A stretch of 59,274 bases of DNA, filler included, from Dugesia japonica (Eukaryota): NCBI GenBank assembly GCA_001938525.1. It is 4 parts of 4 records of this genome, joined end to end, with 100 filler letters (N's around TTAATTAATTAA, not from the genome) between each part and the next. Parts side by side here need not be neighbours in the genome. Positions count along the whole stretch, not along the records: positions 16,092 to 25,720 come from MQRL01598936.1; 3 more parts are not named here. One strand, 5' to 3'. The position numbers and the translations under genes were made by a program. How positions within the stretch are numbered: the stretch's first letter is position 1; every line of letters begins with the position of its first letter. Shown here one piece after another: positions 5,561-50,565 of this stretch. The notes beneath the pieces are model-generated. The model had not been told where the DNA came from. It worked only from the letters and a program-made list of their open reading frames with translations, and did no database searches.

Positions 5561-5951
5561 GTTGGTAGATGTGTCAACATGACACCACTAATTTGATTTG
5601 CCCATTTTTTTAAACCACGTTTTTGATTGGTTACTTGAAAAATATTTTCAGATGAAAACTGGTAAGTCTAACTTGGCATGGGTTATCGTGGATATATTGA
5701 TTTTTTAATTATTGATCGGATCAAAATCGAAAAATAATTTTTGTTGTTTTTATTCACGGGGGATTTTGTGGGAATATAAAACTTTGTTTTAATTTTTTTG
5801 AACTTTTAAAAAAATTGTTTACTGTAGATATTGTTGGTATTGAGCTTCAACGGTAAATATTAATGAAAAGCAATTTTGATTCACATAGACTTTATACAAA
5901 TCTACTGTAAATCATACGTGACTTATATTGCACCCAACATGTTAAAACTAT

Positions 5952-6190: not shown

Positions 6191-6888
6191 CTGAAATATA
6201 AAAATATATTTTTACTTAAATTATATTGTGCGATCTTTATTATTTAAATACAATGTTATTTATATTTATTTCAAATGTTTTTAACTTAATATTTACGAAG
6301 CATTTGTTAAATTAGCATTTGAATTTTAACTTAATATAAATTCNGCCTCCTTCAATGTTAGAGAACATTGTAATTAAATTTTGAAACTATCATGTCATTT
6401 CTTTTATTTGATAAATTTTGGTCGTTTTTACTGCGTTTTTATCTGCATTTAAATAAAATGTTTTTGATCGGAGGTGTGGAATTCATTATTGATTAACACT
6501 TAGCATTATTTTCGCGTACTTAATACTTGTATTTCTGACGATCATTATGTTTTATTTTGTAAAAAGAGTCATTTTAGTCAAGGGATAAATACTCTTGACC
6601 ATATATATTGTTAGGTAATTTTTCAATTGATTATTTTATTTTCAAAATCTCAACTACTTTTAGACATAATTTATTTCAATTCAAACAGCTATCGCACTTA
6701 TGTTATCATATGATAATAGAACCATTAAAATAATATAAACTTAAATCGCTTTCTATAGGTTAAAAGTATTACTTAATAATTAATTCCTCATATATATAAT
6801 CCATAATTTGTGCACTTTCCGAAAACATAATATTTTAAAATTTTAATTATTTATTTTTCTAGAAAATATTTTTAAAATAAAAGCTTAC

Positions 6889-11543: not shown

Positions 11544-12129
11544 AAATTAAGAAATTATACTGTATATCAAATATTGGGCCCCAGCGGTAGTGGAAATAAA
11601 CTATTTGTATGTAAATTATGGAAATCCAATGTATTTAAATAAATTTCAAAAACGTTTACTGGCATAGAGCGGCAGATGAAGAGCATGGATTGACTAAATT
11701 ATAGATAAATTTGATGATAATTGGAGCAAATGAATGAAACCATGTGATGTAATTGTTGTTGATGATCTATACCTGGAAGCAAACAAGAAAAATGACTTTA
11801 ACAATTTATTCACAAAAATATCAACATATTGTAATGTGACTATGATTTTCATTACTCAAAATCTGTTTCATTAAGGAGTTGGTCATATAACCAGTCATTT
11901 AAATGTACAATACATATTTAAAAGTCCAAGACATAAAACAGTGGTTGTTTTTCTAGCAAGACAGGCGTATCCTAATAATAGAAAATTCTTTATGGATTCA
12001 TTCAAGGATACAATAGTAAATCCACATGGGTATTTTTTTGAATTTGTCCAGGTGACCAATGTCCAGATGAACTTAGAGTTAGATGTGATATTTTCAATCA
12101 AAGTGGAATTACAGTATATAAACAATTGA
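11538..12129 (+). pseudogene. Polinton DNA-packaging ATPase (A32/FtsK-like)
   Basis: Walker A GPSGSG (~11577), Walker B VIVVDD, FITQNLF, FKSPR...FLARQAYP...PHGY; frameshifted. Confidence 0.9.
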
Positions 12130-12457
12130 ACAAATAAAGTAATTATTTGATTATAAAATTTCTGAACTTAAAAAAGTTTTGGTTGATCAGGTAAACGATG
12201 GTTTTATAAACGAGAATAGTTCAAAATTGAAAGGTAAAAAGCTAGCTATAAAAAACAAGAAACAAACAAAGAAGAATTCAATAAAAAAGAAGAGAAAGAA
12301 GAAGAATACAAAGAGGAAGCATATAACAAATAAACAGGTAAGGAAACAGTTAAACAAGTTAAAAAACTATCAAAAAGCTTTGAAAAGAAAATTCCAAATG
12401 TTAATGGAAATGGATCAAGTTATAAACAATCTGTCTGTTTGTATTTAAATAAACATT

Positions 12458-12750
12458 ATGAAATTTAAACAAAGTCTTCCGATTTTGAATATATTACTAA
12501 GGATTCCAAAATAGTCGACAAGTAAATTGTTACAGTTATTTCAAACATTTGTTATAGATGATTTGTTAGATATTATTGTGAATATTGTTCGTAGTAATTT
12601 AATTATAAGTAAATAAATATAGAATAACAACGTCATAAAAGTCATTTGTAAATACAAAAAATAGGAAATTGATGAGAAAAATAATATATAAACAAAAGGG
12701 GGGATTCCTTGCTGTTCTTTTACCAATTGTATTAGCAACATTAAGATAAG
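12458..12750 (+). pseudogene. Small Polinton protein with adenovirus pX-like GGFL motif
   Basis: TKGGFLAVLLPIVLAT at ~12692-12740, preceded by the helical segment IDDLLDIIVNIVRSNL; a Lys-rich ORF (12179-12448) lies upstream. Confidence 0.65.
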
Positions 12751-12759
12751 TAAATAAAC

Positions 12760-13703
12760 ATGCAATCATTGTCACATATTTATCTTAAATCGAACCAATA
12801 TGGAAAGACCCAAAATATCCACCAGGGTTCAAAGAAGTATAAAAATTATAGAAGGCAACACACAATTCAAAAGCGATACAAAAAAGTAGTTATTGAACCA
12901 GCTAGCGTACAGTCTGAACAAGCCAATATTGACAAGATTCCCAACAAGACCGTATAAAACATTTGGCGTTGATGATGTATGGCAATGAAAATGATACCTT
13001 ATTGGAGAATTAATAAAGGATATAAGTATATTTTGACATGTGTTGATGTATTTAGTAGATTTTCAAGAGTTGTACTAATAAAATGTAAATCTGCTAATAA
13101 AGTGGAAGCTGCAATCAAAACGATCTTTTAAGATGGCATCAAGATAATTTGCAAACTGAATTTTATAAGTCAAAAGTCAAAGATCAAGATTAATCATTTC
13201 AAGATCAATCATTAACCTTTATTTACACAATACAAAGCACCGTATGCTGAAAGATTTAACCGAACATACACGTTTTATCGAAAGTAATCCATAGTTATAA
13301 TCATACAAGTCGCAAGACATGTTAATGTATAATCTGATAATTCAATGAAATTATGACTTTGAGACTACAAGCAAAAGTTATCAAGAAAGCAAAATATAAA
13401 ATTGGTAATCATTTTAGAATATCAAAGATATCAGCTTCACTATTCATCAAGAATTTTGATAGTAATTGAAATGATGAAGTGTTTTAAATATCAAAATTCA
13501 ATACAAAACAGAATCCATGCATGCATGTGATTAAAGATCATGAAGAAAATATCATTGTTAGAAAATTCTATGAGCAAGAATTACAGGTTATTCCACAACC
13601 AACTGTATTTAGAATAGAAAAGATTATCAGATCAAAGGAAATTAGGAAATATAAAGATTTTTATATACATTGGTATGTATATGAAAAAGCAAGTTGGATA
13701 TAA
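12760..13703 (+). pseudogene. Polinton retroviral-like integrase with C-terminal chromodomain
   Basis: GYKYILTCVDVFSRF, AERFNRT, YKIGNHFRISK, KFYEQELQV, FRIEKIIRS...HWYVY...SWI. Confidence 0.92.
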
Positions 13704-13740
13704 TCATCTCAAGTAGTAAATTAAACAAAGAAAAGAAAGA

Positions 13741-14450
13741 ATGAGCAAAGTGAATAATTTCTATATATATTTTTGCCGAGATATAGTTGTCCACTTATTC
13801 ATCCTGATAATAATGCTAGTAATTTCATTGTTGAACTTCAAAACCTCATTTATATGGATGGTAAATGGGAATAAGTCTTGATGGATTTCACCTTTGTGTA
13901 CTCAACGTTTCTAATTTATAGCATATCAAATATTGAATATGTAACAGGAAAAGAAGAGTGGAAAGAAATTCTTGTTTCAATTGATAATAAAGAAAAATGA
14001 TTCAGTGCCAATGGTGCTGATGTTATTCAAATATATGAAAATGATTACTTGCACCTTAAATTGTTGCATCATGGTAATGTATTGCAATTTGAGAATCTTG
14101 AAGATGCAAAGCGATTTGAATTTGACAATTTAAATAACGACATTTTAAGACAAAATTCTTTTATTTCGATCCATTAAAAACAATGATTCAATAAAAACCA
14201 TAAAAATAAAGTTATTTCGATATAAACGGTCTTACATAACGAAAATGAAACAATTGAATAAATTATTTATCGAAAATTGTTATTATATATTCAAAACTCT
14301 TCATCTAAAGAAGGATGAGCCATTCAGATTTTTTTTGTTGGATGATGTAAAAGTGTAACATTTGATAGAATCTTAACAAAAACACTATTTGGTTTTTTGC
14401 AACTGGATTTTATGAATCAATCAAAATGTCTTATTACTAGTGTTAATGTT
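13741..14450 (+). pseudogene. Polinton minor capsid (penton) protein
   Basis: N-terminal NFYIY..P...IHPDNNASNFIVELQNLIYMDGKWE matches the Maverick penton start; directly follows the integrase. Confidence 0.75.
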
Positions 14451-15991: not shown

Positions 15992-16091
15992 NNNNNNNNN
16001 NNNNNNNNNNNNNNNNNNNNNNNNNNNNNNNNNNNTTAATTAATTAANNNNNNNNNNNNNNNNNNNNNNNNNNNNNNNNNNNNNNNNNNNN
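15992..16091. other. Artificial scaffold spacer N44-TTAATTAATTAA-N44
   Basis: Exactly 100 nt with a six-frame-stop linker; identical spacers at 25721-25820 and 48572-48671. Confidence 0.95.
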
Positions 16092-16939
16092 ATTCTTTTG
16101 TTTTTCCGAATTGATAATATAGCTATTAAGATTATAATCAAATATAGAGTGACCGAAGTAAGGACAACCCCACAAAACGGAAAATTATAAGTGGATAATT
16201 GTAAAAGCTAGTTGTGAGAAGTAAATCAAGCGAGTATCATGTAAAACGAACCCGAACCAAAGGAGTGCGAGTCTGTACTCGAGTTACGAGTCAACGGCTT
16301 CATTCCGAAGAACTGGATTTTTTGGGGGACACCAGATTCAATTCATCGCGGGGTTTTACCACGTCAATTAGCCTAGACTTAATTTTATAAAAAGTTCGAC
16401 CCCCCCTAGATTTAATCATATAAGAAATCAACCCACCTAGGGTAAAACCCCAACATTATTATGTAATTATTATTATTATAATTATTATGGCGTATTTTGG
16501 AAAATACTGAAAAATGAAAATCGGGCGTAGAAGACCAAATTTCGGTGGTGCAAAAATGGAAAATATATGTACCGAAAGGCAAAAATTAGTAGAATAATAA
16601 AAATAATATACTATAATATAATAAAGTATTAAAGGGGCCTCTACGACCCTATTTAATTACTATAATAACTCTATTCAGCGTTTAATATTATTTATTATTT
16701 CTTAATTAAGAAATAATTTGGTCCAGTCATTGTCTGNNNNNNNNNNNNNNNNNNNNNNNNNNNNNNNNNNNNNNNNNNNNNNNNNNNNNNNNNNNNNNNN
16801 NNNNNNNNNNNNNNNNNNNNNNNNNNNNNNNNNNNNNNNNNNNNNNNNNNNNNNNNNNNNNNNNNNNNNNNNNNNNNNNNNNNNNNNNNNNNNNNNNNNN
16901 NAAAAATGAAGAGGTGCACACCAGAGGAGAACCACGCAT

Positions 16940-17060
16940 CAACCAATCAGAAACCCGGAGGAAGAAAAGAAAGAAGATGATTGGCGAACGAATGGATAAT
17001 TTCGAGTTGGGGTGCAAACGAGGAATAAAACTCGTTTGCACGAAGAACTTGGTCAGTTTC
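16940..17060 (+). promoter_or_regulatory. Pol II-like promoter: convergent CCAAT boxes, TATA-like GAATAAAA in a hairpin loop, TCAGTT initiator
   Basis: CCAATC (~16943), GATTGG (~16979), GTGCAAACGAG-GAATAAAA-CTCGTTTGCAC (17012-17041), TCAGTT at 17053, 30 nt after the TATA-like box. Confidence 0.6.
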
Positions 17061-17289
17061 ACAATTAAATTTTAAAAATTTTTACTTGTATCGAGTTATA
17101 TTACATCTATTTTAAACAACTACTATTGTGAATTACAGAGAAGAAGTCCGAAACCTACTGACGAAGGAATCAACAATTTGAAAAAGTAAATTCTATTCTA
17201 GGTAGAAATTGTTAATTAATGAGACTAAATTTCCATGATTCAAGTGTAACCAAAAGCAACTGATGATCGGACTCCCATGGAAAACAAGT

Positions 17290-17500
17290 AAAAATTCTTT
17301 ATGAAAATCGCCACGAAAATTATTTATGAAAAATGCAATGAAAATTCTTCATGAAAATCGCCACGAAAGTTATTTATGAAAAATGCAACGAAAATTATTT
17401 ATGAACAGTGCACTGAAAATTACGTATGAAAACTACAAGGAAAATCATTTATGAAAATCACAATGAAAATCATTTATGAAAATCGTAATGAAACAAATTT
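17290..17500 (+). repeat. Degenerate ~23-bp tandem repeat within copy A
   Basis: About nine units of GAAAATT(A/C)TTTATGAAAA... Confidence 0.8.
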
Positions 17501-18417
17501 TATTCGAGTAAAACCCACAGTTGATTTCGAAAAGATCTAAGGAGAAAATCGCCAATTAATGTGATTTGGTCGAGATGACAATAGAAGTGCTATGCGATTC
17601 TTGAAGTTGAGTCAGGTAGCGATGAGATTTGTCCGAAAGACTTTTTGTGTGATCTCGAGGTGACACGGAAGAAGATCGCTGACAAAAATTTTCTTTTTAT
17701 GAATTTATCTGAGCGAAATTCATGTGTGATGTTGAAATGGTAATTGAGAAAATTTGAAATGATGAAATTTGGTTGTGGCAAAACCTATATTGTCCGGGAA
17801 TCATAGAAATCGATCCAGCACATATGAAATACTGGCTAAAAGCAAGGATACGAAAAACAGATATCTGCAGGAGCTCGGTTATCGCCTTTGATAATTTGTT
17901 CCAAAGTTTATTGTTCAATTAGATATGCTTTGTGAAATACGTTAATTAAAAGATTGTTTTTTNAAAAAAAAATATTATTTTCTTTCATAATTTAATGTTC
18001 GACGGTTTTGTTGTAAACGTAATAGTTAATAGAGGCCGTTAAGTTTATTTGATTAACGATTCATACATGCAATTGAATAATATAGCTTCAATCGGAATTT
18101 TCCTCGAGATTCTTACATTTTTATATTTAAAAAAAGATTTATTTTGCCAGAAGTATAATTTTAATTCGTTCTTATAAAGGTCATCGTCATGTTGGACTTG
18201 CTATTAAGCATATCTTTCGAGAGCTCTGGAAGCATGGGAATGAGGAAATATGATGGTTCTGTATCATCATCTTCTCTGGTTCGCATGTGAGGAGCGTGGA
18301 ACAAGAGCAGATAGGCCACATGCCGAAGAAACGTTTTATTAATTAAATTTATTTTTTTTGTATTTATGAATCTCATTTAATATTGTCATAACAAATTTTG
18401 ATAAATTTATTTGCCAG

Positions 18418-18857
18418 AAATCATGACCGAATACTATCAACCACACATCCCGTTGGTCCTAACAAACGATGGAGACAAGGGAACCTTCTGGATTCCGTGG
18501 AGAAACATTGTGGAGCTGCTAAATGAGCAACGCACAAAATATGAAAAGGAGAAAACCGAGTTGCTGCATAAGGGTGGACAGTTGGTGGTGAAATTTCGGA
18601 GTCCCAAGCAACAGTTGGTCGATACTCAGAAAAAGCTGCAATTATGTCAGCAGGACAATGAGAAGCTCCGGCAAGGAATAGAGATCATCAAGGGGAGTGT
18701 TACCAAGTTGGTAACGCAACAAGTGACGAGCCGTATTCAGTTGGATCATTTGGAAGATCAGGTACTGACATTGACACCCAAGGGTGCCATAGAGCAGGCA
18801 GTGACCCAGGAAATCGTCATCATAAAGGTGGAGTCCTTGTCTACCGACGAAAAATAA
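18418..18857 (+). CDS. Coiled-coil ORF2 of the unclassified element (copy A)
   Basis: Open, GC-richer frame after acceptor TTTATTTGCCAG; GTFWIPWRNIVELLNEQRTKYEKE aligns with GQFYVEWSEVQFMLRREQEKWKKE of copy B; AATAAA overlaps the stop. Confidence 0.55.
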
Positions 18858-19307
18858 ATGTTTCTGAGTGACGGAATTGTGTTTTATTGATGTTCTTCTA
18901 CTTAAGTACAACAACAAATTAATTATTAAGTGATATGTATGTCACATCGTGGTTCAAACATTTTTTTTGTTGTCGGCCGAGGCAGTAATAAGTTTGAAAG
19001 AGAAATTTTATTAAAATTTTTATTATTAAATTGTGTCAGTATGGAAAATGCCGATGTGGAATAAGTAGTTATTTAGTCAGTTCTTAAATAACTTTGGATT
19101 TTGTGAAACATTTTAACTTGCAACTATTAGTTATTTTAATTNNNNNNNNNNNNNNNNNNNNNNNNNNNNNNNNNNNNNNNNNNNNNNNNNNTATTAGTTA
19201 TTTTAATTGTTGATAGTCACTTATATAAATTACACCTGGCATAATCGAATTAAAATTAAAATTTTGATTTTAGTGAATCGATCCAACAACGAGAAAATGT
19301 TAAAGTG

Positions 19308-19590
19308 AGATGCAACCGCTGCTCAACAAAAATGGAAGGAAGAGCGGAAAGAATTAAAAAATGAAATCCTGAGGTTGAAGGGGCAGGTACTGAAATCGAC
19401 AGCTAAGTATAATCAGATCAAAGAAAAGGAGCTGTCCCTTCAGCACGCGAACCGGTTAATGGCATACATCATAAAAACATATGCCGACCGGGAGAGTTCG
19501 ATGTTTGTATCGCTAAGAACTCTATGGCTGACAACTGGTAAACTGGAATTTAAAGAAACGCTATATTTATTAATAAATGTTGCAAACTAA
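19308..19590 (+). CDS. Coiled-coil ORF3 of the unclassified element (copy A)
   Basis: DATAAQQKWKEERKELKNEILRLKGQ...KEKELSLQHANRLM...DRESSMFVSLRTLW; homologs at 23971-24218 and 33265-33610. Confidence 0.65.
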
Positions 19591-19800
19591 TGAATTTGTT
19601 TTGACTGACGTGTATGTAAATCCAATGAAGCAATAACAACCATTAATACAAAGATATTCTACAAAGATAATTAATTATTTGTATCCATTATTATATTAAA
19701 AGTTGCATCTCAGTTGATCTCATCAGTAAAAAAATATACATATACTAAATTTAAAGGTGAAAGAAACAGTATTGAATTTTTTAATATAAATATTATTTAC

Positions 19801-20115
19801 CTGTAAGGAAAAATTTTTAGTTCATTTAATTTCTGTTGTATTAATTCGAGATCTTCGATTTTCTTTTTCAAGAAAAAATATTCTAAAAAACTAATAATAA
19901 AATCGATATAAAAAATTTCTTCAGATTCCGATATTTCTAATAAGCCATTTCTAAATCTCATAGCAAGTTGCAGCCACGCTTCTCTATAAAGCTGCATAGA
20001 TGAACCGAAATTTCTTCTACTCAAAGATTGGGCAATTTCTGGAGTAAAAATATCCCCAATTAATTCTTCATTTATATTTAATGTTTTATCCATTTTGAAA
20101 TTGTTCATACAACCC
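19801..20115 (-). CDS. Probable exon of an unknown host gene
   Basis: About 105 open codons in AT-rich DNA, bounded by a TTTTTGCAG acceptor and a CAG|GTAAAT donor; no recognisable domain. Confidence 0.4.
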
Positions 20116-21599
20116 TGCAAAAATCAAATATAATGAAATTGAGGTTATTTAAATGTATACGTAGTTCTTCAGATTTAACTTAATCAACTTTTAGTTCAAA
20201 AAATTATTACAACTCAATATTAAACACTAAAAAATATATATATAAATATATATTAAACACCGATGCTGAAAATGGACTTTTCAACAGCTAAAAAAGATGC
20301 GATTTTAATCAATTTGTTTTGCTTGGAATTAAATTAAATTAGAGTTATTTAAAACACACTATTATAATTATAATTAAAATTATTGTGTGGAATCGATGGT
20401 AGAATGTTTTTAATTAATTTAGAATTAAATTAACTGTTAATGGTTATGAAATCCAAGTTTTGTTTAAATAACAGAATGGTGTCAGTTTTTTAAAAAATTT
20501 ATTCAAGTGTGAAATTTCTTGGAACAGATTTAGAATTTACAGATTGTAACTAAGATTGATTAGATTATATAATTACATTTTCTTAGTATTTTTTTGTAAT
20601 TACAATTTAGTTTATTATTAAGTAGTAACTAAAAGATATCTATTAATTGTTAATTGAATTGTCAAGGATTTTGTCAAGTTAGACAACAATTGTTATCACA
20701 TTTTATTCTATTATTAGTCACAATTTAATAATGCTTTTATAATTGATTGCAAACTTTCTGAATTTATTTCAATTATAACTATATAATTATTATTTTATAC
20801 ATTTAGGTCTATATTGATTATTGCTATATTGATCATTTTATTAATAAAAATTATAATCATTTTCAGTAGAATTTAGAAAGATTGAAAATCTTGCAACTTG
20901 AAATTATAGAAAAGCTATTTGTTTTATTAACAAATATAGAAAACTAGAATTTATTGACTAGTTAGTATAAAAGCTCAACACCTAACAATTACAACAAAGA
21001 TAGTTTTGATAATTTATTCATTATTTTAAAGATTCAATGAATTTCGTTGGTAAAATTGTTGGTCAAACAATAAATCCTCATTTCCTCAAAAAAATTTAAT
21101 AGAAATGAGAATATATTGTTGCATCTTTTTGTCACATTGTTGCATCTTTTATCATATTGAAACGTATTTTTGTTATATTGATACAGTTTGTGAATACAAC
21201 TATTAACAAAGATTTATGCATAAAAATTCAAATTATTTCAGTTAACATATTAAAACTAACTTCTTTAGTTTAGAAATCATTTATATAAATAATTTGAATG
21301 AGAGAATTGAGTAAAATTCATTTCATTTGATGTAAACTGAGTTAATTTCATCTCATGTATAAAATTCGAAAACTCAAATTACTTATAAAAAATGTCTTTT
21401 AAAGTTTAGATTAAAAAAGCTCAAACTATAGATGAAGAAATGGAATTGAATATAATTAATAATTGAAAAATCTAAATAAATCAAATGGATAAATATTTCA
21501 ATAAGAAAATTAAATTTCAACATCAATAAATTTAAGTATCAATCATGAGAATTTTTTCAATGATATGATTTTATTAGTAATATTATTATTATTTTTTTT

Positions 21600-24480
21600 T
21601 CCAAAGTAACAATCAGAGGTCACATGAGGTGACCGAAAATATAATTCAGCGCAAAGTTGGTGTGCACAAAAAATCAGTAAAGTAATAGAGAGAAGGGAAT
21701 GCACACCAACCACTCCAATCAGAGGAAGGTATTGAAAAACATCGGGATCTGATTGGTGGACTAATGGGAGGTCCCAAGTTGTGGTGCAAACGAGGAATAA
21801 AACTCGTTTGCACAGGAAAGCAGTAGCACTTTTTGTATTTTCATTAAAAATTTGAATTAATCATTTACAACAGTTGGTCAACTATTTTGAATTATTTATC
21901 ATAAATTACAAGAATTGTTTGTAACTGACAGCTTTAATATTACCATTGGAGAGGATCAAAATATTATAAAGTAATTTTTAAGCTATTTATTGATAATTTG
22001 ATAACACCTATCTTACATGTTCGAGTGTCCTAAGAGGTCGTATGGTTGTGCTCCCATACGTGTCATGACATAAAATATAATCGAAATACGTTATACAAAG
22101 AATCCTGCCGAGATAAAATTATCACATGAAATGAGCTAATCGCAAACGCTTACAATGGCCAGTGAGAGTTGTTGGCAAACGGTACAATGTCCTTATGAAC
22201 ATCATGGCGGGATAAAATGATATTCTAGAATCTGGCAGAACCAAAATTATAAAATGAAATAAATCGATTGCATTCAGTTACGAGAAACTGTGAGAGTTGT
22301 TGGCAGACGGCACAAGTATCCATATCACGAAATGAAAACGAAATAAAATAAAAATTATATCAGAATCTTGCAGGACTAGAAGTCGGAAATGAAATAAATT
22401 AATCGTAACTATTTACGAGAAACTTTCAGAGAGTTCGGTAGCCGATACAAGGTCCTTGTTAACCGTAATGACGAGAAGAAATTATCCGAAATGGAGTCCA
22501 ATACTATGAGGTAGATTAGAGAACGGTGGCGGTAATGTAACCGCAGAATGTACTGTAGAAGCGAAAATGTTGAGTTGAAGCGAGAATACAGGTTGATAGA
22601 GCTGTAACGATAGAATGAGACTATTTGGCGTTCGGAAATAAACAAATTTCGATCAAGTATATTATGAATGAGATGGGAGCTCGGTTATTATGATTTATTG
22701 CTGATAGTAATAAAAGTGTTCAGTGTCACTTAATATAATAATTTTATAAATTTTGTTTTCGTTTGGTCTGGGTTTTTAACCTGAAAAAGTGAATAAATTT
22801 TTATAGTGGAATTGTCACCGTGTGTCAAAGTAAAAATTTTATTGGTCTGAGTTGAATATGCACTCTTTTTCGTTCTTTAAGATTTAAAAATGTGAATGTA
22901 AAATAATCATATAATAAATTGAATTATAATTAAAACATAATTTATTGTTTTATTAAAATTTGAATATGTAAATGATCATATAATCAATTGAATAATTTAT
23001 GACGGCTATACATGCTGTCGGGATATTTGCTTTGATGTGAATGAATTAAGGACAATGCTTATCAGAACTTCGACGTAGCNAGAACTAGAAAAGATGGCGG
23101 CTTCGGTGGACATCTTCTCTGGTTCGTGCTACAGAAGTGGGGACGAAGAAATATGAGGCCGCTGGCCGAAGAGACGAATAATTAATTCTTTTGTTATTCC
23201 ATTAATTTATTAAATAAATATCTTTGAATTTAACTTTTATTGGTCATAGGTGCATAATTCGAATCCAGATGAGGGCAATGATAGAAAGAAAGAGGATTCT
23301 GGCGCTTATATAGATGAGGTCGGACAATTTTATGTGGAGTGGTCAGAAGTGCAATTCATGCTGAGGCGAGAACAGGAAAAGTGGAAGAAGGAAGTCGCAA
23401 ATGTGCAAGCCGATCTAGAAACAGCCCAGTTGCAAATGTTGATTAAGGATACCAATTATCTTCTGGCCGACTATCAAAGGAAATGTGACCAGAGGGTTGT
23501 AAAGGAAGAGGTCTCGGTGTTGCCAGATTCCACTAATAGTATTTCATTGTAAATCATCAACGTACGAACATTGGTGGGATCAACTGACAAGGAGATGGAA
23601 GCCGGAGAGTTGCAAATAATCCAGCAATTGATGGGGTTGAGAGAAATCGCCCCCGTGAAATGGGATTAATGATTCAATAAATGTTTATAGCATAGATATA
23701 ATGATTTTATTTTTTTTTAACGATAGTAATGTGATATGTATGTAGCATTGTGGTTATAAATTCTAGTGTCTGCAGAGGCCGTAATAAGTTTAAACAAATG
23801 TTTATTTGTTTTATTTTTTTTGCTGGTGTAAAAACGCAAACGCGGAGTAAATAGTTCGTTCTCGAATAATTTTCTGTTGATGATAAACAATTTTGTTTCT
23901 TTTACTTGATTATTATCTTATCTCAGTTAAGCTTATTATAATCAAATTATGACTAAACATTTTTTTGTAGATCTAATGAAGAAAAGATGCTAAAAAAGAT
24001 GCAATCGCTGCGCAGCAAAGGTGGAAGGAGGAACGAAAGGAGCTAAAAATGAGATTTTGAGGCTGAAGGGGCAGTTGATGAAATCGTTAGTGAAATATAA
24101 CCAAATTAAAGAGAAAGAGCTGTCCCTTCAGCACGCGAATAGACTAATGGCGGACATTATAAAGAACCATGCCGACCGAGAAGGCTCCATGTTCGTCACG
24201 CTAAGGACCCTCTGGTAAATTACCGAACAACGGAAGAACCGACCGAAGCAACGGAGCAGATCGTGGATCTGGATGCTTAACGAATGAGGCCGAGGATGTA
24301 AATAATGAAATAAATATTAATGGATGATTGGTTGATCGAGTAATTGCTGTCCTGGTTTACAAATTCAGAGAGTAAGACGCGATACCGCAAAGTCGCAAAG
24401 TGGAAAGATAGGGGCACGTCACAGAGGTGACGCAAACACTTGAGGATTGTAGGTTGCCCCTATAAATGACGGTGATAATA
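21600..24480 (+). repeat. Unclassified dispersed element, copy B (promoter, leader, ORF2 23250-23670, ORF3 23971-24218)
   Basis: Same 30-bp hairpin as copy A at 21784-21813, CCAAT pair, HLLWF block, ORF2/ORF3 homologs carrying a stop or frameshift. Confidence 0.8.
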
Positions 24481-24699
24481 ATGATTAAAAGTGGGATCAG
24501 AGAATTTAAAGAACAATTTAAACATCAAAATCCTAAAAAACCTAACAATAATAATATTAGAATAATTGTTTTTAATAAATTTCTAAATTCAATTTCTAAA
24601 GATAAAAATTTATCTCCAAAATGTTGTGCTGCATCATGTCCATAATATTTGATATATTCTGATTTTCTTAAATTTTGATAATTATTTGTTTTTTAAATT

Positions 24700-25080
24700 T
24701 TAATTTCAATATTAATTGAAGATAATTTCGTTGAGGATTTTTATTGAAGATAATTTTATTGAAGAATTCAATTGAGGAATTGTATTTTAAAATATCCCTC
24801 ATGATTTAAAAATATAATTGAAGATCCTCAAGCAAAGCTTTGCGAGCATTTAATTGATGATAACTTTATTAGGGATAATTTAATTGAAGATAATTTTTAT
24901 TGAGGAATTTAATTTAAAAATATAATTGAAAATAATTTAATTGAAAATAATTTTATTGAAAAATTTTATTTTAAAAATATCANTGAAAATTTTTATTTAA
25001 AAAATATCATTGAAGAATATTATTTAAAAAATATCTCTCATGATTTAAAAATATAATTGAAGATTAATTCCTCAATGTAA
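24700..25080 (+). repeat. AT-rich degenerate repeat (ATTGAAGATAATTTT-type units)
   Basis: Repeated ATTGA(A/G)GA...TTT motifs; TCATGATTTAAAAATATAATTGAAGAT occurs twice. Confidence 0.6.
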
Positions 25081-25820
25081 AACTTTAAGAAATAGAATAA
25101 ACTTTTATATAGTACTATTAATTTAATTTTTTTAGAGTAAATGGCTGAAATTTATATTTTAAAAATATGATTTAAAACACAAGTAATGTTAGAATGGGGG
25201 CACTTTTGAATTTGTATTTATATTGTATATTATATGAATATATATTTTTACCATATTATTATATATTTCACATCCTGCCTAAACAAGTGTCAACCGTATT
25301 AAGAATCATACGGCCCTCATACTAACATTACTAATATCTACTTTAATACAGGTCTCGGAAACCTTATTTTACTTCGAGTCAATACAAATCAATATGAATA
25401 CTAAGAATGCGTTTCGGATCAAGAGTATATTAATTTTAGGACGTTTTTTAACGAATTATAATAAGATAAAATTTATTGTAAAAATAATAACAATATGCTT
25501 TCATTAATTTTTTTAAAAAATTTTTAAATAATTAAATATGATTTTAAAAAATCTTTCTGTTTGTCTGTCATCATTGACTATGCTTCATATTCATGCATTT
25601 TTTGACGGAACATTACAAACTATTTCAATAAAATAAGAAACACAATATACTCAAATAACTGAAAAATGCAGAGAAAAAAATATTTTTAAATAATCTTTTC
25701 AGGTTTAGTTAGGATAAGTGNNNNNNNNNNNNNNNNNNNNNNNNNNNNNNNNNNNNNNNNNNNNTTAATTAATTAANNNNNNNNNNNNNNNNNNNNNNNN
25801 NNNNNNNNNNNNNNNNNNNN

Positions 25821-30199: not shown

Positions 30200-31588
30200 T
30201 TATTCCTGATCAAATTCTTTCTGTTCCTTCTTCACTTCTCGCTGAAGACCACAAAATATCGATTGATTATTATTATTATTATTATTATTATTGGGTTCTT
30301 CTTCTTTACAAATGTTTTCCTGAGAAAAATAATTATTATAATTCTCCGTTTTCCTCGGTCGTCCGCGTTTTCGTTTGACAGATTCAGTTAAATTATCGAT
30401 TATTCCCCCAGTTGATTTATCATTTTCTCCTCCTCCTGCTCCTCCTGCTGCTGCTTCTGCCTCTACTTCACCATCAAACAATCCATTGAACAAATCTCTT
30501 GCGTCTGGTAATTTCCTCTTGCGTCCACGCTTCATAGGTTCGTGTTTAACCTGCTCCAAAGTTCCTTTCTCGTGTTTCTCAATGTGACACTTCATGTGCA
30601 TCACAGTGTTTGCAGTGAATCCACACTCGTCATACGGACAAACAATCTTACCGGTGGCTCCTCTCGATTTCCTCGTATTGATCTCGTCTTTATGGTACTG
30701 TTGTACGTGAGTTTGTAGTTCTTCTGTACTGCTGAATGTTACTTCACAATACCGACAAACCTCTTTCCGATTAACCTTTCTGCCGTGATTCCTCGTGATG
30801 TGATGATTCAATTTGTTCATCTGTTCGAATCCCGGTTTATTACAAATCGGACAACTGAATTTACTCATGTGTTCTTTCAAGTGTTGTCGGATTTCTTTCA
30901 CATCGGCAATCAACAAACCACAACTATCGCACTTGAAATTCTTCTCCAATTCCAAATTGCAAACTTTTCTATGGGTTTTCACATGGTAAACATTGGTAAA
31001 TCTCTCGTTACAACCCAAACAAATGATTTCCAATGAATTATTATTCACTTGTTCAACATGTTCCTGTAATTCGTGTTCACGGGTTCTCAAATGCGACAAA
31101 TAGATGTCGTGGGTTTTGAATTTCTTTTTACAAAGCAAGCAATCGAATTTCTTTTCGTCGTTATGCCGGCTTTCGTGGGTGTTTCTATTGGTTTTCTGAG
31201 TGAAAGTTTTATGGCAATATTGGCATTTGTACGGTTTAATTTTCGTATGAGCTCCACAATGGTGTTCAAATGTGCCACCGTTATTCGTCATATAATCACA
31301 ATTCGGAAATTTACAATGGTATCGGTATTGAGACGGATCTCTCGGTGGTTTATTCGGGTCAACGTGATCTCTACGTGCATGTAAAAACAAATCACTTAAC
31401 TCGAGAAAAATTCTCGGACATTGTCGACAAACGAAAATCTTTTCTTTATGTAATTCTTTATAATGTTTTGTTAATGCACTGGCATTGGAAAACGTTTTCT
31501 GACAATTTGGGCAAGGATATTGCGTATTCAGATTTTGAGTTTCTTCAACTAAAATATCTCCAGTTTTATCCATTTTCACAAAATACAT
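30200..31588 (-). CDS. C2H2 zinc-finger transcription factor (about 10 fingers) with C-terminal AT-hook(s)
   Basis: Intact 462-aa ORF; nine C2H2 fingers and one C2HC, HTKIKPYKC linker, KRGRPRK AT-hook, KRGRKRK, poly-Asn tract. Confidence 0.95.
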   Translation of the reverse strand: MYFVKMDKTGDILVEETQNLNTQYPCPNCQKTFSNASALTKHYKELHKEKIFVCRQCPRIFLELSDLFLHARRDHVDPNKPPRDPSQYRYHCKFPNCDYMTNNGGTFEHHCGAHTKIKPYKCQYCHKTFTQKTNRNTHESRHNDEKKFDCLLCKKKFKTHDIYLSHLRTREHELQEHVEQVNNNSLEIICLGCNERFTNVYHVKTHRKVCNLELEKNFKCDSCGLLIADVKEIRQHLKEHMSKFSCPICNKPGFEQMNKLNHHITRNHGRKVNRKEVCRYCEVTFSSTEELQTHVQQYHKDEINTRKSRGATGKIVCPYDECGFTANTVMHMKCHIEKHEKGTLEQVKHEPMKRGRKRKLPDARDLFNGLFDGEVEAEAAAGGAGGGENDKSTGGIIDNLTESVKRKRGRPRKTENYNNYFSQENICKEEEPNNNNNNNNNQSIFCGLQREVKKEQKEFDQE

Positions 31589-33199
31589 TTTTTCGTCTAA
31601 CTAATTAATTTCATTAAATTCACTTATTTATAAATTGCATATTATTAATTATTACTATAACTGTTTTATTTATATATTGCTTAGGATTTTTTTGAATATC
31701 TTCTAATATTGAGGTAACTTTCTATAAACAAAAATTAAACAACTTACATTTTAAATTCAACCAACTTCTTCATTTACTAAATTTTCTAATACAATTTCCC
31801 CTGCATTTTCAATAACATTAAAATACTGATCATTAATCTATTTAGTTAAATTTATTATTAATCCAAAATGATTAATTTAATAATATATGATTACCTGCAC
31901 AATTTGATTCAAAAAAGGTCTAAAATCTTCATTTAACTAAAAAAATTCAATTATAGGGTTTATTAAAAATTTCAATATAAAAAAAACATTTGATGCAGTA
32001 AGATTGCTTTCATTTTTTATTTCAATATCCTAATTTAACAACAGATTAAAATTAATTATGAATAATTGGGAAAAACAAACTTCAAAATTGTTACTATCGT
32101 GAATTTCTTGAAACATAGTTAGTGTGAAAATCAAATTGAAATATTAAAACAAATATTTGATTTTTTAGGTTTTTAATTTTGATTAGGAAGTTAAATGAAA
32201 TTTTAGAATTGAATATTGAAACAAAAGTTATTATATTAATCAAATTCAAAAGCAATTTAATTTTGTTTGACTTGAACAATTAAAAGAAATATTTTATAAA
32301 TGATTTTTTCAGAACTGGTTATATTTTTTGAAATATTTCGTTTTGATTTTGAACACATAATTTGAAAACCAAAAATTTTTTAAAATTTGAATATTTAAAA
32401 AAACCATTTAATTTTTTTGTATTAAATCATAAATATTGTTGAAAATAACTTCAAATAAATAACATTGATAGTTAAAACAACTTAAATCCAAATAAAAATA
32501 TGCCTATCAAAAATATTTTTTGTAACAACTAAAAAATAGTAATTCAAAATTATATAAAAAATATTTAAAAACATTCTATAAAATCAAAATAAAATATTAT
32601 TCCACTAATGTGAAGAAATGCAGGGAAATGAAATCGTACAATAATTAAACAAGGTAAATAGAAATTTAAAAATACAGAAACCAAGAATGATTTTATATAA
32701 TTGCTAAACAGATAAAACAATAAAATAATACAAATTTAAAACTCAATGCAATTTAAAAAATTCCAAATAAAATCAGGATAAATAATAAAAGTAAGAAGAA
32801 TGAAAAAATAATAATAAAAAAATGAAATATTAATGAATTTTCAGAAGTTAATGTTTTCCAAAACAGCGATTCACAAACTAATAGTCTCGGAATAGTTTAA
32901 AAAGAAATGCAACTTTTAAGCATAACAAATATATATACATTTTAATAAATTTTCATCACATAACATTTATCATACTGTCGTGCTCCGAGGATTTGATGTT
33001 TTTTTTTCTTCTATTGTAACTCTTGGTACTTCTTTCTTGTCATTAATTTTATCTCATTATCTTCTAGGAACAGATACCCGAGAGCCGGCAGAAATTTGCC
33101 AACACTCCTCGTGTTGCTCCATCCACCCCGAGTCCATGCGGGACTATGTGGTATCCCGTCTTTTAGAAAGTCTTAGTTGTTATGGCTCTTATTAAGTTG

Positions 33200-35500
33200 A
33201 ATCAATTTATTCTTTAAACAATGAAGAGACTCCGATAATAATTAAACATTTATTTTGATATAATTCATAGTGACCCTAAGATTGTTTCCTCGGTAATCAC
33301 CCATTCATCGTCACTTTTGTTCTTCACCTCAAATTCCTTCCACAATATCTTTACGTTGGCGAGGACGGATGCTTCTCGATCTTCATAGAATTTGATTATC
33401 TCGATAAACATTCGGTTTATCGCGATGAGTGCGAGTTCTCTCTGGCGACTCACACTCAATCGTTCTCGCAATGTAGATATTCTTCGCTTGGTGAGGCTGG
33501 CCGTTTCTCGTAGTTCTTTGTTTTTCTAACTTAGCCTTTTTGGTTCTAGTCTGGCCATGCGCTGATCGATTAACAACTCTTCCTGGGTGGGTTTGGTGAT
33601 TCTCATTGACATTCTATAATTAAAATAGACTAATCATTCATGAAAAAATAGTTCGTTTTTATCGGTATAACAATTTTATCATATAAATTCATAATAATTT
33701 ATTAATTTTCATTATAATTATGGCGTTAAATTATTGCAGATTTTATCTCTTTATTTTATCATTGAGTATTTACTTATTTGCTTGTATTATATTTAACACA
33801 TTTCATATTCTGTCGTTTAAGTGTCACTTGTTTCGTTCAGCGGGACTAGAATCTGTCCCAGGATTGTTTCGACTCTTGTTGCCAGTCTCTCATATCTTTG
33901 TGTATTCTTACGCCTCGATTTGCATCGATCGCATGGACTGAATAATCTGTTGCTGTCGTTTGGCCAACTCGGTGGATTCATGATGGCTTTGGTTATTTGA
34001 TGTTCATACTGTTGCTCTTGTTCCCTGATTTTCTCCTCTAATCGCTTCAATTTCTCGAAATGTTGTTGTTCCTGAATAGCCATTTCCTCCTCCAGAATTT
34101 GGATGCGATCCTCCTTCTGATTCATTCTATCTTGTATCATCCCCCAAGGCCCAGTATCTGTACCTTCCAGCCCTAGTGCGTTCCATGAATTCGGCAAGTC
34201 ATTTGCTGTATTGGCCCGAAGCCTCCAACCGTCGTTGCTCAAACTCGCTTCGGCTTAGTTTAGTTTGATCAGGTGTGACATCTGCATAACAAAATTTCAA
34301 TCATTATTATCAAATTAGTGAATTATAGTTTTCAAAGATGGTAATCAACTCGAACAGTGTGATCGTTCATAAAAATCTTTTCCAGTTATTAAAACATCAT
34401 TAATATCATGGTCGTTAATTCTTGAACAGGTACCGGATCACCGAGAGTACATGACCGTATTTCCAATTTAGCAGTTTGATATCGTGAAGTTAAATCGTTA
34501 ATTTTCATTTTTATTTAACCACTCCAATTCACTCTAGGTTCGTTCGCCATAACGAATGATCCTCCTGCCGTTTCCCGTCTATTTCACATGATATCTTTTC
34601 CTACCGAATAAACAGTTAATATCAACTATAATCATTAAAATAATGAAAATGAGAATTTATTATCAATTAAAAATTTATAATATATGAAACAATAATAATC
34701 ACGAATAATCAAAACAAAATATAAAGTATTATGATATTAAAATGGCATAATTTAATCAGTTAGAATCATGTATTGAACTATTAACTAACTCAACTTGATA
34801 TTTTTATTGAAAACCATAAACATTTCTCATAATAATACAATAGTCAAACAATTTTATATTAGAAGAAGTTCAACCACCACTTATCAACTGTAAAACATCT
34901 TATTTCATGTATTCATGTTCAATCTCATATTCATGCTGCTAATGCTTAATTCATCGAGATTCTTTACCAATTTATCTCACTCATACTAACAATATTTATC
35001 TCTCATAATATCTCACTTCTCGTAGTCTGCTCAAAATCTTTCCACACAATATCTTAGTGGCCCACTTTCACTTCACCCAACAAGATGTATCTCTTTCATT
35101 TCAACAATGTTTGTCTCCCTCACGTTCATAACATCATCTCATAATCATCTCATAATCATCTTAACAATATTCCACTTGCACAGTGTATAAATTCATGGTG
35201 GATGATCTGGTGCCTTGGATATCTAAGTTGTGATGATCGTCACTACCAACAAGGCTAGCGATGATGACCATCGCCTCAGTTTTCCGTTTTATAATTTTGG
35301 CATAATAATTTTTAAAATAAATTAAAAGATTTACTTCTTTGCTTTTCGTTTATATTTTGGTTTTTCCGCTGGTAATAGTAAATGCTGCTTAAAAGTTCGG
35401 TTTAATTGACTAATAAGAGCTCCAGAAAAATTGAATTTTTAAGACTGATTTTCCACTGATTTTGATTTCCTTTTATACCTCACTGTATCGTCAAATTTTG
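33200..35500 (-). repeat. Unclassified dispersed element, divergent copy C (ORF2 33817-34281, ORF3 33265-33610)
   Basis: GAGGTATAAAAG and TCAGTC on the minus strand (35481-35443), leader exon with GTAAAT donor, and ORF3 RELALIAINRMFIEIIKFYEDREASVLANVKILW homologous to copies A/B. Confidence 0.7.
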
Positions 35501-36139
35501 ANNNNNNNNNNNNNNNNNNNNNNNNNNNNNNNNNNNNNNNNNNNNNNNNNNNNNNNNNNNNNNGTAGCTTCCACATAGATGTCCAAATATGGGCGTGATT
35601 ATTTTTATTTTTTGTTAATTCTGTAGCGGTTTATGTGCTCACAGATGCTCTATGTTTTTTCCTCAAGTGGAGAGGCTTAAAAAATAATATTTTTTTAAAA
35701 CTTGTATGAGTTTTAGAAATAAAGATAACTACACAATCACATGCAGATATGAACACATCAACCCTAAATTCTAACATAAAATCATCAGACCTTCTTCTAC
35801 ATATAACGTTTCTTTTATAATTCCTTCTTGTTCATTATAAATAATAATATTTATTGAATTATAATAATAATTTTAATTATATTTATCGATAATAATAATT
35901 TCACATTTTATATTTTTAATAAAATTATAATAATTCCATTGTTGTACTTTAACCTGATAAATAATCTATTATTTTCTTATTAATGTTGGGCTAGAACACA
36001 TCTTGAAATAATACGAAAATCTGCAGGAGAGCAAGCAGAAAATTAAGTGAAAATTGGTGCTGGACCAGATATTTTACTTTATATTATCATTATTATTATG
36101 TAATTATTATTAATATAATTATTATACTATTATTGAAAC

Positions 36140-37300
36140 GAGAAAAATGAAAATTGGGCGTAGAGGACCCAAATTTGGAGATACAACAATGAAATTTGGA
36201 TGTACGAGTAGGAAATAATAGGCTGGATAATAAAAGTAATATACACTACTATAATAATATATTAAAAGAGCCTCTACGACCCATTATCGTTATAATAAAT
36301 AACGCTAATTAGTGTTTAATATTATTGAAAAATAAATTTATTCTGGTCCAGTCACGTTTAATTCTGGTTTTTCCAAGCGACGATTCAGTTGACAAACCAG
36401 ACAGAGAGACAAGGACATTACCCTGACGACACGAATTTGGTTTTCCAAATTCGATGTCAATCATCAGTCGGAGAGAAATCCACACGACAAAATATTCATG
36501 AGAAACAGGAACCAATAACCAATAGGAGGTCGAGATTGCAGGATAAGCACAAACGATTGGGTGACCAATGAGAGCTCCTCAATCTTTAACTAGGAGAAAG
36601 AAATAAAATATGGATACCCGAGAAAAGTAATCAGAAAAATTCTTCAAAATTTTATGCAAATATATTTCCAAAATTTTTACTTCGACATTTTATCGAAATA
36701 ATCAGGAGGACGACAAAGTAAAATTTATTTATATTTTTTGTTTTTTATTTTAATAAAATATCTAAAATCATAAACAAAATCGATATCCGAGTGCCGTTCC
36801 TAGGAAAGAGTCTAGGATGGAACATGGTGATTGATGCACGTATATTATTGGAGAGATTTTTTTGGAAGAATGAGAGGACAGAATTAGTTGATAAAAATGA
36901 AAAATAGGTGTTAATACTTTGGGTGAGATGAACAGGACGTTTGTGAGTAAATGCGAGAAATGAGACTCTGGGAATTTCCAACATTTCGAATTGTGATCTT
37001 GAACTATTTATGATCCTANNTTTNTTTTGGTTTNNNTGATTGGGGAGTAAAATANCATATGTCCTTTGTAAAATTATGTTTTTATCAGTAAAAGAGTAAT
37101 TAAATCATTTAGTTATTATTATTGCTTATTATTACTTTTTATCATTCATTTCAATAATAATTTATAATGGAGATAACGGGAACGACAAAAGATGACTGTT
37201 TCCAGCAGGTATCTTCTCTGGTTCGCGTTATGAAACGGTGGGAAATAATGTTAGGCCTCAGGCCGAAAATATCGTTTGAAAAAAAAAATTTAAAACTTTA
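36140..37300 (+). repeat. Unclassified dispersed element, truncated copy D
   Basis: 36144-36355 aligns with 16511-16730; several CCAAT boxes; ATCTTCTCTGGTTCG...AGGCC..GCCGAA block at ~37210-37275. Confidence 0.75.
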
Positions 37301-38260: not shown

Positions 38261-38299
38261 TGTTGTTTTTGGGCTAGTTCATATTCTTTTTCTCGGCAG

Positions 38300-39640: not shown

Positions 39641-39659
39641 TAAAACAGCAAACTAATCT

Positions 39660-44989: not shown

Positions 44990-46200
44990 ATTATGGGCGG
45001 GTATGGATAATCCCTAGATTCAAGTAAATAAAATAAAGTCCATGCCTCAAAATTATTATTATTATTAATATTATTATTAATGTAATGATCCTTATTATAA
45101 AGAAATAATTATTATTTAATAATTTAAGTCAACAGAAAGTGATTAAATTGAATATTAAAATTTAATCAATTCTAACCACTTATATATTTATCTTATCAAG
45201 TATATGTTGAAGTAGAAAAATAAATTATGTCTCAAAATAATAGTTTTGATATAGAAAATGAATTATGAATTGAAGATTTACCTAACACTTATTATGTTTA
45301 TTAATTAAATCGAACAAGCACTCGTTATGTGTCCAATTAATCTAGTTTTTCCAAAGTCTGAATCAGCTACGAAAACAGTTGATTAGACAAAGCACCAGCA
45401 GGTTAGACACGGGATTTAGAAAATCCAAATCTTGTTTCAATCATCAGGTAACCAGGTACATGAGAAATGATGATACGTGGTAAATCGAGATTTATCAGGC
45501 GAGTAAGTGTGCGAGTAAAAAGAAATGTTACTGGTGAAAGACAGTGTGCGTGTACTGCGATAGGAATCAGACGTGTAGGTATGCGGTGAGATGCACTTGA
45601 AACAAGAAGCCCACTAGGAGTTGGCATTACGAAATAATATGCGTAAGTTATTAGTTGCAAGGTGATGGATACGACAATCAATAGGGTAACTGCTAATAAC
45701 GTCGTAGATACAGCGATTAACTAATAATGATGCTAGTAAATCATTTGACCAAACTGATATAAATGCAGTGTGCGGAGAAATAGATTAAAATAAATTCTAT
45801 TCACAATTGTTTATATCCGTCTACCGAATTTTAGTGTGGGCAAATTATCGAATTTCATATCGAATCCAGTTGAAAAAAATACTAATTTTTTAGTTTTATT
45901 TTTTAGGTAGAATGTAACAAAAGTTCACCAAGTGACAGGACAGCGAAACAATGATCGGGCTCTTAACACAAAAAACAGTAAATTCATTTCGAACATTAAT
46001 TGAGAATTGTTGGCAATGAAATGAATAAAAGCAGCAAATTAATTTCGAACGTAAATTGAGAATTGTGGGCATTAAAATGAGAAAGCATAAAATTGATTTC
46101 GAGCATAAATTGAGAATTGTTGACAATAAAATAAAAGCAGAAAGTAAACCTCGAAAGTAAATGGAAATTGCCTTGATTGAAGCAAGATTAAGAAAACGCT
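44990..46200 (+). repeat. Unclassified dispersed element, partial copy E with ~45-50-bp tandem repeats
   Basis: 45330-45450 aligns with 36346-36470; CAAGTG...ATGATCGG block as at 17241; about four AATTTCGAAC.TAAATTGAGAATTG units at 45975-46160. Confidence 0.55.
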
Positions 46201-46939
46201 TGAATCGGGAGTATGATGATGATGATGATGATGAGTAAAAGTAAAATACGGAGTGGTAAGTGTTATGATTATGGGAGCAGTCATGCGCGGCACTGTCAGT
46301 CGTCTGTTGAAAGATGTGTATTGATCAATATAACTTTTCATTCTTAAATATCTGTGAATGCGTTATTTGAACTTGGTCATATACATTTATTTCAATTAAT
46401 CGAAAGCAATTTTTATGAATTTATGAATTTAAATTATTTTTTACACATTTAAATAGTAATTTGATCATGACTTTAGAACATCGAAAGCGAATATACAATT
46501 TTATAATAATAGTCAATTATAGGTTCTGATATAACAAAAATAGTTTTTGATTAATGATCATTTTTATTATTTACCGATTGCATGGCCTAACTAATTTTGA
46601 TTCACAATTAGGTTGAAAGATCAATATTATTTATTTTACGAATATTTTAATGACTTAGGATAATTGCTTTAGGAATTTAATTAATTAAATATGATAATAT
46701 CTCAGTTAAGTTTAATTTGATAAGAATTGAAATAGTTTAGGTGAAATATTTATAATAAAAATTTGAGATAATTCTTCAGTAATAATTTTTAATTCAATNT
46801 GGTTTTNATTCCATATAAATTTCAATGATCTAGTTTAATCTAGTATTTAGTTTGATATATATTAGGAAATTTTGGTTATTTAATTACTTAGTGAGCTTAT
46901 AACATTATTGTAAAGGGTTGTAGAATGACTTGATGAGAA

Positions 46940-50461: not shown

Positions 50462-50565
50462 TGTGCAGTGATTTTATTGAAGTTTAAGTTTAAAGAATTA
50501 CTAATCACAATCTCATAAGGTTATAAATATGTTCAATAATAAATTTATAACCCTTTTAGGCTTGT

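Follow-up and report, generated by a model that had tools for sequence, protein, structure and literature searches.

A multi-copy repeat family of Dugesia japonica with a selected reading frame, a conserved hairpin and a possible rolling-circle helper

Non-autonomous transposable elements are normally non-coding. The sections of two reports that were consulted describe non-autonomous Helentrons as combining inverted repeats, a microsatellite, subfamily-specific tandem repeats, 3' hairpins and interchangeable flanking modules (PMC4067079, PMC7492417), and HINEs as without coding capacity (PMC4067079); the definitions of Helentron and Helitron ends used below come from part of PMC11417382. According to the portions consulted, Burro elements carry accessory open reading frames (ORFs), tandem repeats and three CCHC knuckles, Terminons have coiled-coil ORFs (both PMC6431247), the extra ORFs of long terminal repeat (LTR) elements are often spliced and coiled-coil (PMC5408684), and the hammerheads of Penelope-like elements (PLEs) have a long helix II (PMC4209133). 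Here we describe a family of repeated units, A to E, in a 59,274-nucleotide (nt) stretch of Dugesia japonica DNA (assembly GCA_001938525.1), hereafter the window, which consists of four parts joined by filler at 15992-16091, 25721-25820 and 48572-48671.

The family has many copies with a collinear layout, a selected ORF (ORF3), dead copies, a conserved hairpin, a common structured 3' end and no terminal repeats. Our preferred reading, held tentatively, is that it is an old, multi-subfamily, non-autonomous DNA element of ∼3-3.5 kb with its own small gene cassette and probably a rolling-circle (Helitron-like) helper. The window is AT-rich (29% GC); Gypsy, non-LTR and Polinton-type elements have left remnants in it, and it includes a host gene for a C2H2 zinc-finger protein.

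A collinear family with a selected reading frame

Units A and B lie on the piece 16092-25720 and units C, D and E on the piece 25821-48571, which agrees with an earlier note on this DNA that had placed five related units on at least two joined pieces. GC content is 34-36% within A, B and C vs 19-21% in their flanks. Along 2.6 kb, A (16934-19545) aligns collinearly with B (21701-24233; nhmmer E 2.6e-61), with alignability confined mostly to short blocks: in order, a 30-nt hairpin, a donor-like site, a central tandem repeat, a conserved block, ORF2, a spacer motif that is also conserved, and ORF3. The layout of C, which lies on the minus strand, is the same, and D retains the 5' part as far as the conserved block and is truncated before ORF2. 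E has only a ∼110-nt 5' block in common with D (z 8.9) and an upstream block in common with A (z 5.1). These sequence comparisons unite A, B and C as collinear copies within a single old repeat family, with D and E as 5' fragments; E belongs to it only marginally.

The full order that had been proposed as shared, from an inverted-repeat (IR) module through promoter, leader and repeats to ORF3, occurs in no copy: the IR module is found only in A and D, the hairpin block only in A, B and D, and ORF2 and ORF3 only in A, B and C. The 3' ends, previously set at 24480 (B) and 33200 (C), are moved to 24534 and 32988, where matching stops at the same motif in both, and 16340, formerly given as the start of A, is not its start but a position inside a far more abundant module (16224-16454). 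The coding, hairpin and 3' end features are as follows.

18232..18327, +: A long hairpin (18232-18289) and GGC-loop-GCC mini-hairpin; the block earlier called HLLWF..RPxAE
18423..18857, +: A ORF2, 144 aa, open, coiled-coil-like; predicted acceptor just upstream; AATAAATGTT over the stop
19297..19590, +: A ORF3, in-frame stop at 19306
23075..23170, +: B long hairpin (23075-23132) and mini-hairpin
23250..23669, +: B ORF2, internal stop at 23550, without a start codon behind the predicted acceptor
23987..24280, +: B ORF3, frame breaks near 23995, 24045 and 24216 (six-frame translation); relative P0001 is open
24374..24534, +: B structured 3' end, aligning to the C 3' end
32988..33162, -: C structured 3' end, adjoining low-copy AT-rich DNA (run X1 depth 5068 inside vs 122 at 32800-32940)
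33265..33612, -: C ORF3, stop at 33528
33817..34281, -: C ORF2, broken by a stop at 34257; no demonstrable homology to the ORF2 of A and B

Over 56 in-frame codons, ORF3 of A and B differs at 11/3/25 sites by codon position (1/2/3), which corresponds to 0.08 nonsynonymous (pN) and 0.79 synonymous (pS) differences and a ratio of 0.10 (bootstrap 95% 0.04-0.19); 17 further codons show 1/2/8 differences. The differences are largely synonymous, as had been noted before, and ORF3 is by this measure under strong purifying selection between A and B. Selection is demonstrated for ORF3 alone, since ORF2 shows weak conservation in the A/B comparison (z 5.5) and none that could be demonstrated for C (A vs C z 1.8); the earlier attribution of purifying selection to the ORFs in general is accordingly narrowed to ORF3. 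The ORF3 of C is ∼30% identical to that of A (tblastx E 2.3e-6) and keeps the residues previously listed for it. ORF3 is broken in 3/3 window copies and ORF2 also in B and C, although some single-base breaks in B may be assembly errors, as an otherwise identical contig has three gaps in 456 nt nearby. Selection between subfamilies together with decay inside copies is a signature of selfish DNA.

The relatives of ORF3 are P0001 (75%, open frame) and P0003 (distant, E 4e-5), and ten columns are invariant across five sequences. Its predicted structure is one 104-residue helix with a hydrophobic heptad (predicted local distance difference test, pLDDT, 84; predicted template modelling score, pTM, 0.43). 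Homolog searches gave one match among one candidate for ORF3 (P0001, at the same 75%) and none among 27 candidates for ORF2, and the ORF3 profile matched none of 7,999 longer proteins. A search of representative proteins gave three matches: P0001, which was the query itself, P0003, whose distant relationship is genuine, and P0002, a plant protein of repetitive sequence that was dropped as spurious. A pyrimidine tract and AG stand upstream of all six ORFs, and AATAAATGTT follows four of the six (six matches in the window vs 1.8 expected; 0/100 shuffles). From the predicted acceptor onward, B ORF2 (23250) and P0001 have open frames but lack a start codon close by; an upstream exon or spliced-leader addition could possibly supply one.

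Conserved hairpin, 3' end and abundance

The HLLWF..RPxAE block had been taken for an ORF. It is instead a ∼59-nt hairpin without a protein-coding role, judged non-coding because its differences between A and B are evenly spread in all three frames (7/6/8 by codon position) and the D copy is out of frame. The pairing covaries, with 94% of cells paired and 8/27 pairs changed on both sides (1/500 shuffles), vs 27-44% paired in a slid control that is lenient, the structure having been derived from the same three sequences. A 15-mer identical in A, B and D forms the 3' arm (three matches vs 0.1 expected). One-sided changes give G-U pairs on the plus strand and thus favour coding-strand RNA as the functional form. 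Single folds have z scores of -2.9, -2.7 and -2.3, and the minus strand of D folds as well (z -3.1).

A basal extension brings the stem to 28 pairs, in 28 paired columns with small loops; microRNA precursor hairpins have about 33-35 bp. Conserved pairing with one conserved arm, the hairpin criterion for a microRNA gene, was found in three sequences. The hairpin is described here as shaped like a microRNA precursor, but it is just as likely to be a signal for protein binding or packaging. Neither C nor E contained a copy recognised by the hairpin model, Rfam gave no match to the arm at gathering score, and a literature match to the arm was not found. A likeness of the invariant arm to the hairpin ribozyme was dropped, as the partner loop is not conserved.

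B and C have a hairpin-rich 3' region in common (z 4.2, 0/500 shuffles), in which 6/18 predicted pairs are compensatory, in two sequences only; as a single sequence it folds with z -2.9 for B and only -1.4 for C. Upstream of D, a short stretch resembling the 3' end did not reach significance (z -0.1). No terminal repeats were detected in any of five end pairs in either orientation (at least 11 nt, 1 mismatch, at least 4 G/C), where both ends of one copy are available only for C, with a 62-nt gap. The C 3' end adjoins low-copy AT-rich DNA and, as the earlier note had observed, no reverse transcriptase (RT), DDE, recombinase, Rep or capsid match occurs in the unit ORFs; the unit therefore looks self-contained and helper-dependent. 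For the unit proteins, Pfam, PHROGs, PDB and the ESM Atlas yielded only generic coiled-coil matches below cut-off, and Rfam yielded nothing at gathering score for the units.

Depth was summed over contigs, in bins at 85% likeness for the A/B region and 80% for the C/D region, and does not equal copy number. In run X1, where long exact flank pieces have a depth of about 10, depth reached 1,961 over the hairpin, 2,455 over ORF2 and 2,790 over ORF3 of A; 248 over ORF2 and 12,884 over the 5' hairpins of B; 325-5,068 over the C arm (122 in its 3' flank); 7,631-106,341 over the C-D centre, part of it microsatellite; and 367-1,467 over the D arm. Run X7 shows the same C/D profile, and a second organism (run X16) has diverged copies at low depth. 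Depth ratios suggest that the hairpin, ORF2 and ORF3 of A are present in ∼190-330 copies and C in 145-500; the corresponding figures are 24-40 for ORF2 of B and the D arm, and 750-1,900 for the 5' modules. By these estimates the copies of a subfamily range from tens to hundreds and those of the 5' modules reach thousands, the latter partly because the modules are conserved across subfamilies. Part of the family is contained in 20/24 listed runs, from 10 studies. Taken together, depth, selection on ORF3 and the absent enzyme matches support the earlier proposal of a multi-copy mobile family lacking an enzyme.

Among 1,888 million letters of poly(A) reads, depth over the ORFs does not exceed 2.8; these reads mostly differ from the window copies, and a few diverged ones match ORF3 (11 reads at 19341-19362). 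Splicing of the leader to the ORFs is predicted from its sites.

Neither the unit proteins nor the promoter hairpin found loci in metagenome, viral and prokaryote collections. No published description of the family was found by title or abstract; the passages of PMC8532177 and PMC11410931 that were consulted describe no such unit, and three text files from the supplements of the latter gave 0 matches. The family is thus unclassified and unnamed in the literature found, and may already sit in a repeat library.

Remaining features, modules and neighbouring remnants

The other features of the units are listed below.

16224..16454, unstranded: very high-copy upstream module beside the AAT tract of A; inverted repeat 16350-16360 / 16441-16451
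16455..16729, +: A IR module with AAT tract, inner inverted repeat and right outer arm, without the left arm; 77% to 36092-36326
16943..17190, +: A CCAAT boxes in both orientations, 11-bp hairpin, predicted leader, predicted donor 17186
17291..17493, +: A central tandem repeat, 8 x 25 nt, non-coding
21595..21975, +: B 5' part with five hairpins, opposed CCAAT boxes and predicted donor 21971; fold z -6.3/-7.4
22099..22451, +: B central repeat, 3 copies, spacing 128 + 135 nt
35330..35501, -: C promoter-like region, TATAAAA 35469-35477, predicted donor 35334; weak B-leader match, z 3.0
35564..36056, unstranded: high-copy centre with AAT tract between head-to-head C and D; X1 depth 8,600-106,000
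36057..36354, +: D complete IR module, outer and inner inverted repeats around an AAT tract; fold z -4.5
36357..37290, +: D 5' hairpin block, CCAAT boxes, predicted donor 36718, hairpin 37173-37231; ends before ORF2
45330..46230, +: E, with the 5' block common with D and a 55-nt repeat, without conserved hairpin, ORF2 or ORF3

The 30-nt promoter hairpin, with an AATAAAA loop (17012-17041 in A), is identical in A and B, where it stands behind the opposed CCAAT boxes with the donor-like site 120-175 nt downstream. Each copy has its own central tandem repeat, with a unit of 25 nt in A, one of ∼130 nt in B and one of 55 nt in E. Family similarity in A stops near 19545, from where the DNA is single-copy (exact piece 19529-20221, depth 9.8), and B is 5'-truncated against unique DNA (exact piece 21270-21728, depth 12). 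The N gap from 35501 to 35587 is spanned by one contig. Two non-coding motifs are also held in common by A and B, at 18930-18995 / 23731-23791 before ORF3 and at 17870-17882 / 22676-22688 before the hairpin; no conserved fold was found for either, and they are possible extra donors or promoter elements.

Flanking modules swap, with A and D carrying one and E another. The latter, a ∼190-nt repeat at 45095-45288 that substitutes for the IR module in E, recurs at 1229-1408 and 6598-6792 (-), and its copy at 1229 is followed by an AAT tract and the decayed gag-pol of a Gypsy element (1510-5570). The ∼230-nt module at 16224-16454, with its subterminal inverted repeat, has a run X1 depth of 232,753 vs ∼10 in single-copy-like flanks, mixed loose ends before 16228 and an estimated 20,000+ copies; it may be a separate HINE- or solo-LTR-like element targeting AAT tracts. 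A distant relative lies at 44891-45045, the equivalent place in E.

Remnants of other elements surround the units. Directly beyond the broken end of D lies a decayed gag (37571-38200, minus strand) with three CCHC knuckles and what, by its motif, we take to be a protease tail. Polinton-type remnants at 11700-14100 and 53000-54600 contain polymerase B and endonuclease VII (Pfam) and, judged by eye, presumably a packaging ATPase, an integrase and a chromodomain. Decayed non-LTR retrotransposon pieces with RT (Pfam) occur at 38200-43500 and 47280-48570, with ends that we take for restriction-like endonucleases of NeSL/R2-like type, and by eye ∼50560-50830 (+) is presumably the GIY-YIG endonuclease end of a Penelope-like element. 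An intact 466-codon C2H2 zinc-finger ORF (30200-31600, minus strand) with AT-hook-like motifs and an Asn run lies 1.4 kb from the C end, and tandem, 85%-identical exon copies at 55929-56119 and 57157-57351 carry a membrane-spanning segment and a weak claudin-family match (E 0.005).

Candidate mechanisms and comparison with known systems

If the family is a non-autonomous DNA element with a rolling-circle helper, a single promoter would drive a short leader that splicing joins to either ORF2 or ORF3, and both ORFs would have poly(A) signals of their own. The hairpin RNA and the pair of helical proteins would serve the element through helper recruitment or protection from silencing, so that selection would act on active master copies while inserted copies decay, and the end hairpins would be the signals read by the helper. 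We infer the identity of the helper and the roles of the proteins from this scheme, in which the coding-strand intron and poly(A) signals would suit a DNA intermediate. The microsatellite, central tandem repeats and 3' stem-loop typical of Helentrons and HINEs are present, but these traits are not exclusive to the HLE2 group. In its working the family resembles a HINE at best, and it is not classed as one because the end-motif tests failed.

Several points weigh against this preferred reading. No RepHel gene was seen in or beside any window copy, no gap-free complete copy with both ends occurs in the window, and the 11-18 nt subterminal inverted repeat pair of Helentrons and HINEs was not found between the ends in five end pairs. 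Helitrons of the HLE1 group start with TC, finish in a hairpin plus CTRR and insert between A and T; a hairpin-CTRR-T end was likewise not found in B or C, where the CTRR sites lack the T at the common end. Among the 15 of 88 joints listed, none was spliced or RNA-supported, and the abundance estimates start from summed contig depth, as defined above. Strong selection on trans-acting proteins of a non-autonomous DNA element is unexpected, autonomous linkage being simpler, and a hairpin RNA functional on the plus strand would fit a retroelement equally well.

Autonomous linkage is what the most serious competitor offers. The units could be LTRs or an accessory arm of giant Gypsy (Burro/Ogre-like) elements, surviving as solo or deleted relics, with ORF2 and ORF3 as spliced accessory genes, possibly antisense to gag-pol. 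Such linkage accounts for the purifying selection better than a rolling-circle helper does. On the minus strand, a distance of 270 nt separates the three-knuckle gag remnant from the point where D breaks off, and the module ahead of A, read on that strand, gives TGTTGGGG. Gag adjoins one of the five units, D, on the opposite strand, and the D-gag junction may be an independent insertion. Against this reading, there was no direct repeat between the ends and no purine run of 10 in the B 3' region, and by eye no TG..CA pair, primer site or target duplication was seen, negatives with which a solo LTR with ends outside the tested ranges is compatible. B and C share their end point, beyond which the DNA is AT-rich and is not pol, and a sense LTR would contain two poly(A) signals. 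We regard the Gypsy origin as possible, if rather unlikely. A new satellite-like class, a virus-like cassette that depends on a helper and hijacks a larger element (Polinton-like or other) by means of its proteins and small RNA, seems to us doubtful, despite the compact virus-like layout, the hairpin geometry resembling a primary microRNA transcript, ends that fit no tested class, and a lack of any homolog family in five libraries, an absence to be expected where repeats evolve fast and the genome is under-annotated. The same genome does contain remnants of Polinton-type polymerase B and endonuclease VII, and the common 3' end closes in CT, as Polinton ends do; yet the units have no long terminal inverted repeats, no 6-bp duplication, no polymerase B, integrase or capsid genes, and no linked Polinton gene was found. 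In its broadest form, a satellite-type element outside current transposon classes, with no enzyme, two coiled-coil proteins made by alternative splicing and a microRNA-like hairpin, the idea is unlikely; if true, it would mean helper exploitation or silencing evasion and a eukaryotic counterpart of phage satellites.

The remaining candidates fare worse. A host gene family specific to the lineage, multiplied through segmental duplication or carried along in repeats, in the earlier note a fast-expanding one, would explain the normal-looking promoter, splice and poly(A) signals, the purifying selection and the few ORF3 poly(A) reads. It is very unlikely given that every window ORF3 is broken, that copies run to hundreds with a sharp common 3' end, that poly(A) depth over the ORFs is so low (≤2.8), and that the protein searches found no named relative. 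More improbable still is a Penelope-like/Terminon arm with coiled-coil ORFs and a hammerhead ribozyme. It draws on one hammerhead-core-like string at 45447 on the minus strand of E, the only exact one with flanking stems in the window; this candidate (45400-45455) was rejected, having no helix II, while the core differs in the homologous block of D, none occurs in A, B or C, and an Rfam and motif scan found no hammerhead in a terminal repeat. No telomeric repeats were noted.

A family that keeps a protein to synonymous saturation and a hairpin by compensatory change must gain from both. Such a gain implies either a functional satellite of another element or an uncharacterised accessory part of a giant element, and either way two small proteins and one hairpin become testable in a much-sequenced organism.

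Among described systems, HINE/DINE-1/Cg_HINE (HLE2) elements are like the units in having inverted repeats and a microsatellite at one end, hairpins near the other, no enzyme, family-specific central tandem repeats, interchangeable flanking modules and no target duplication seen; the units, in contrast, have no subterminal repeat pair, are much longer and carry a selected ORF and a conserved internal hairpin. The giant planarian Gypsy elements Burro/GYPSM1, and Ogre, share long modular non-enzymatic regions, tandem repeats and accessory ORFs, and a gag remnant adjoins D. Unlike Burro, the units show no LTR pair, primer site, purine tract or duplication, and, compared by the domains named in the consulted part of PMC6431247, no Burro domain matched the unit ORFs. 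Terminons/Athena likewise have small coiled-coil ORFs in a mobile unit, a structured 3' end and truncated copies, whereas the units are without a helix II hammerhead, RT or telomeric junction. Polintons/Mavericks resemble the units in their compact genes with a poly(A) signal at the stop and have left remnants in the same genome, but they differ in their terminal inverted repeats, polymerase, integrase, ATPase and capsid, none of which the units possess.

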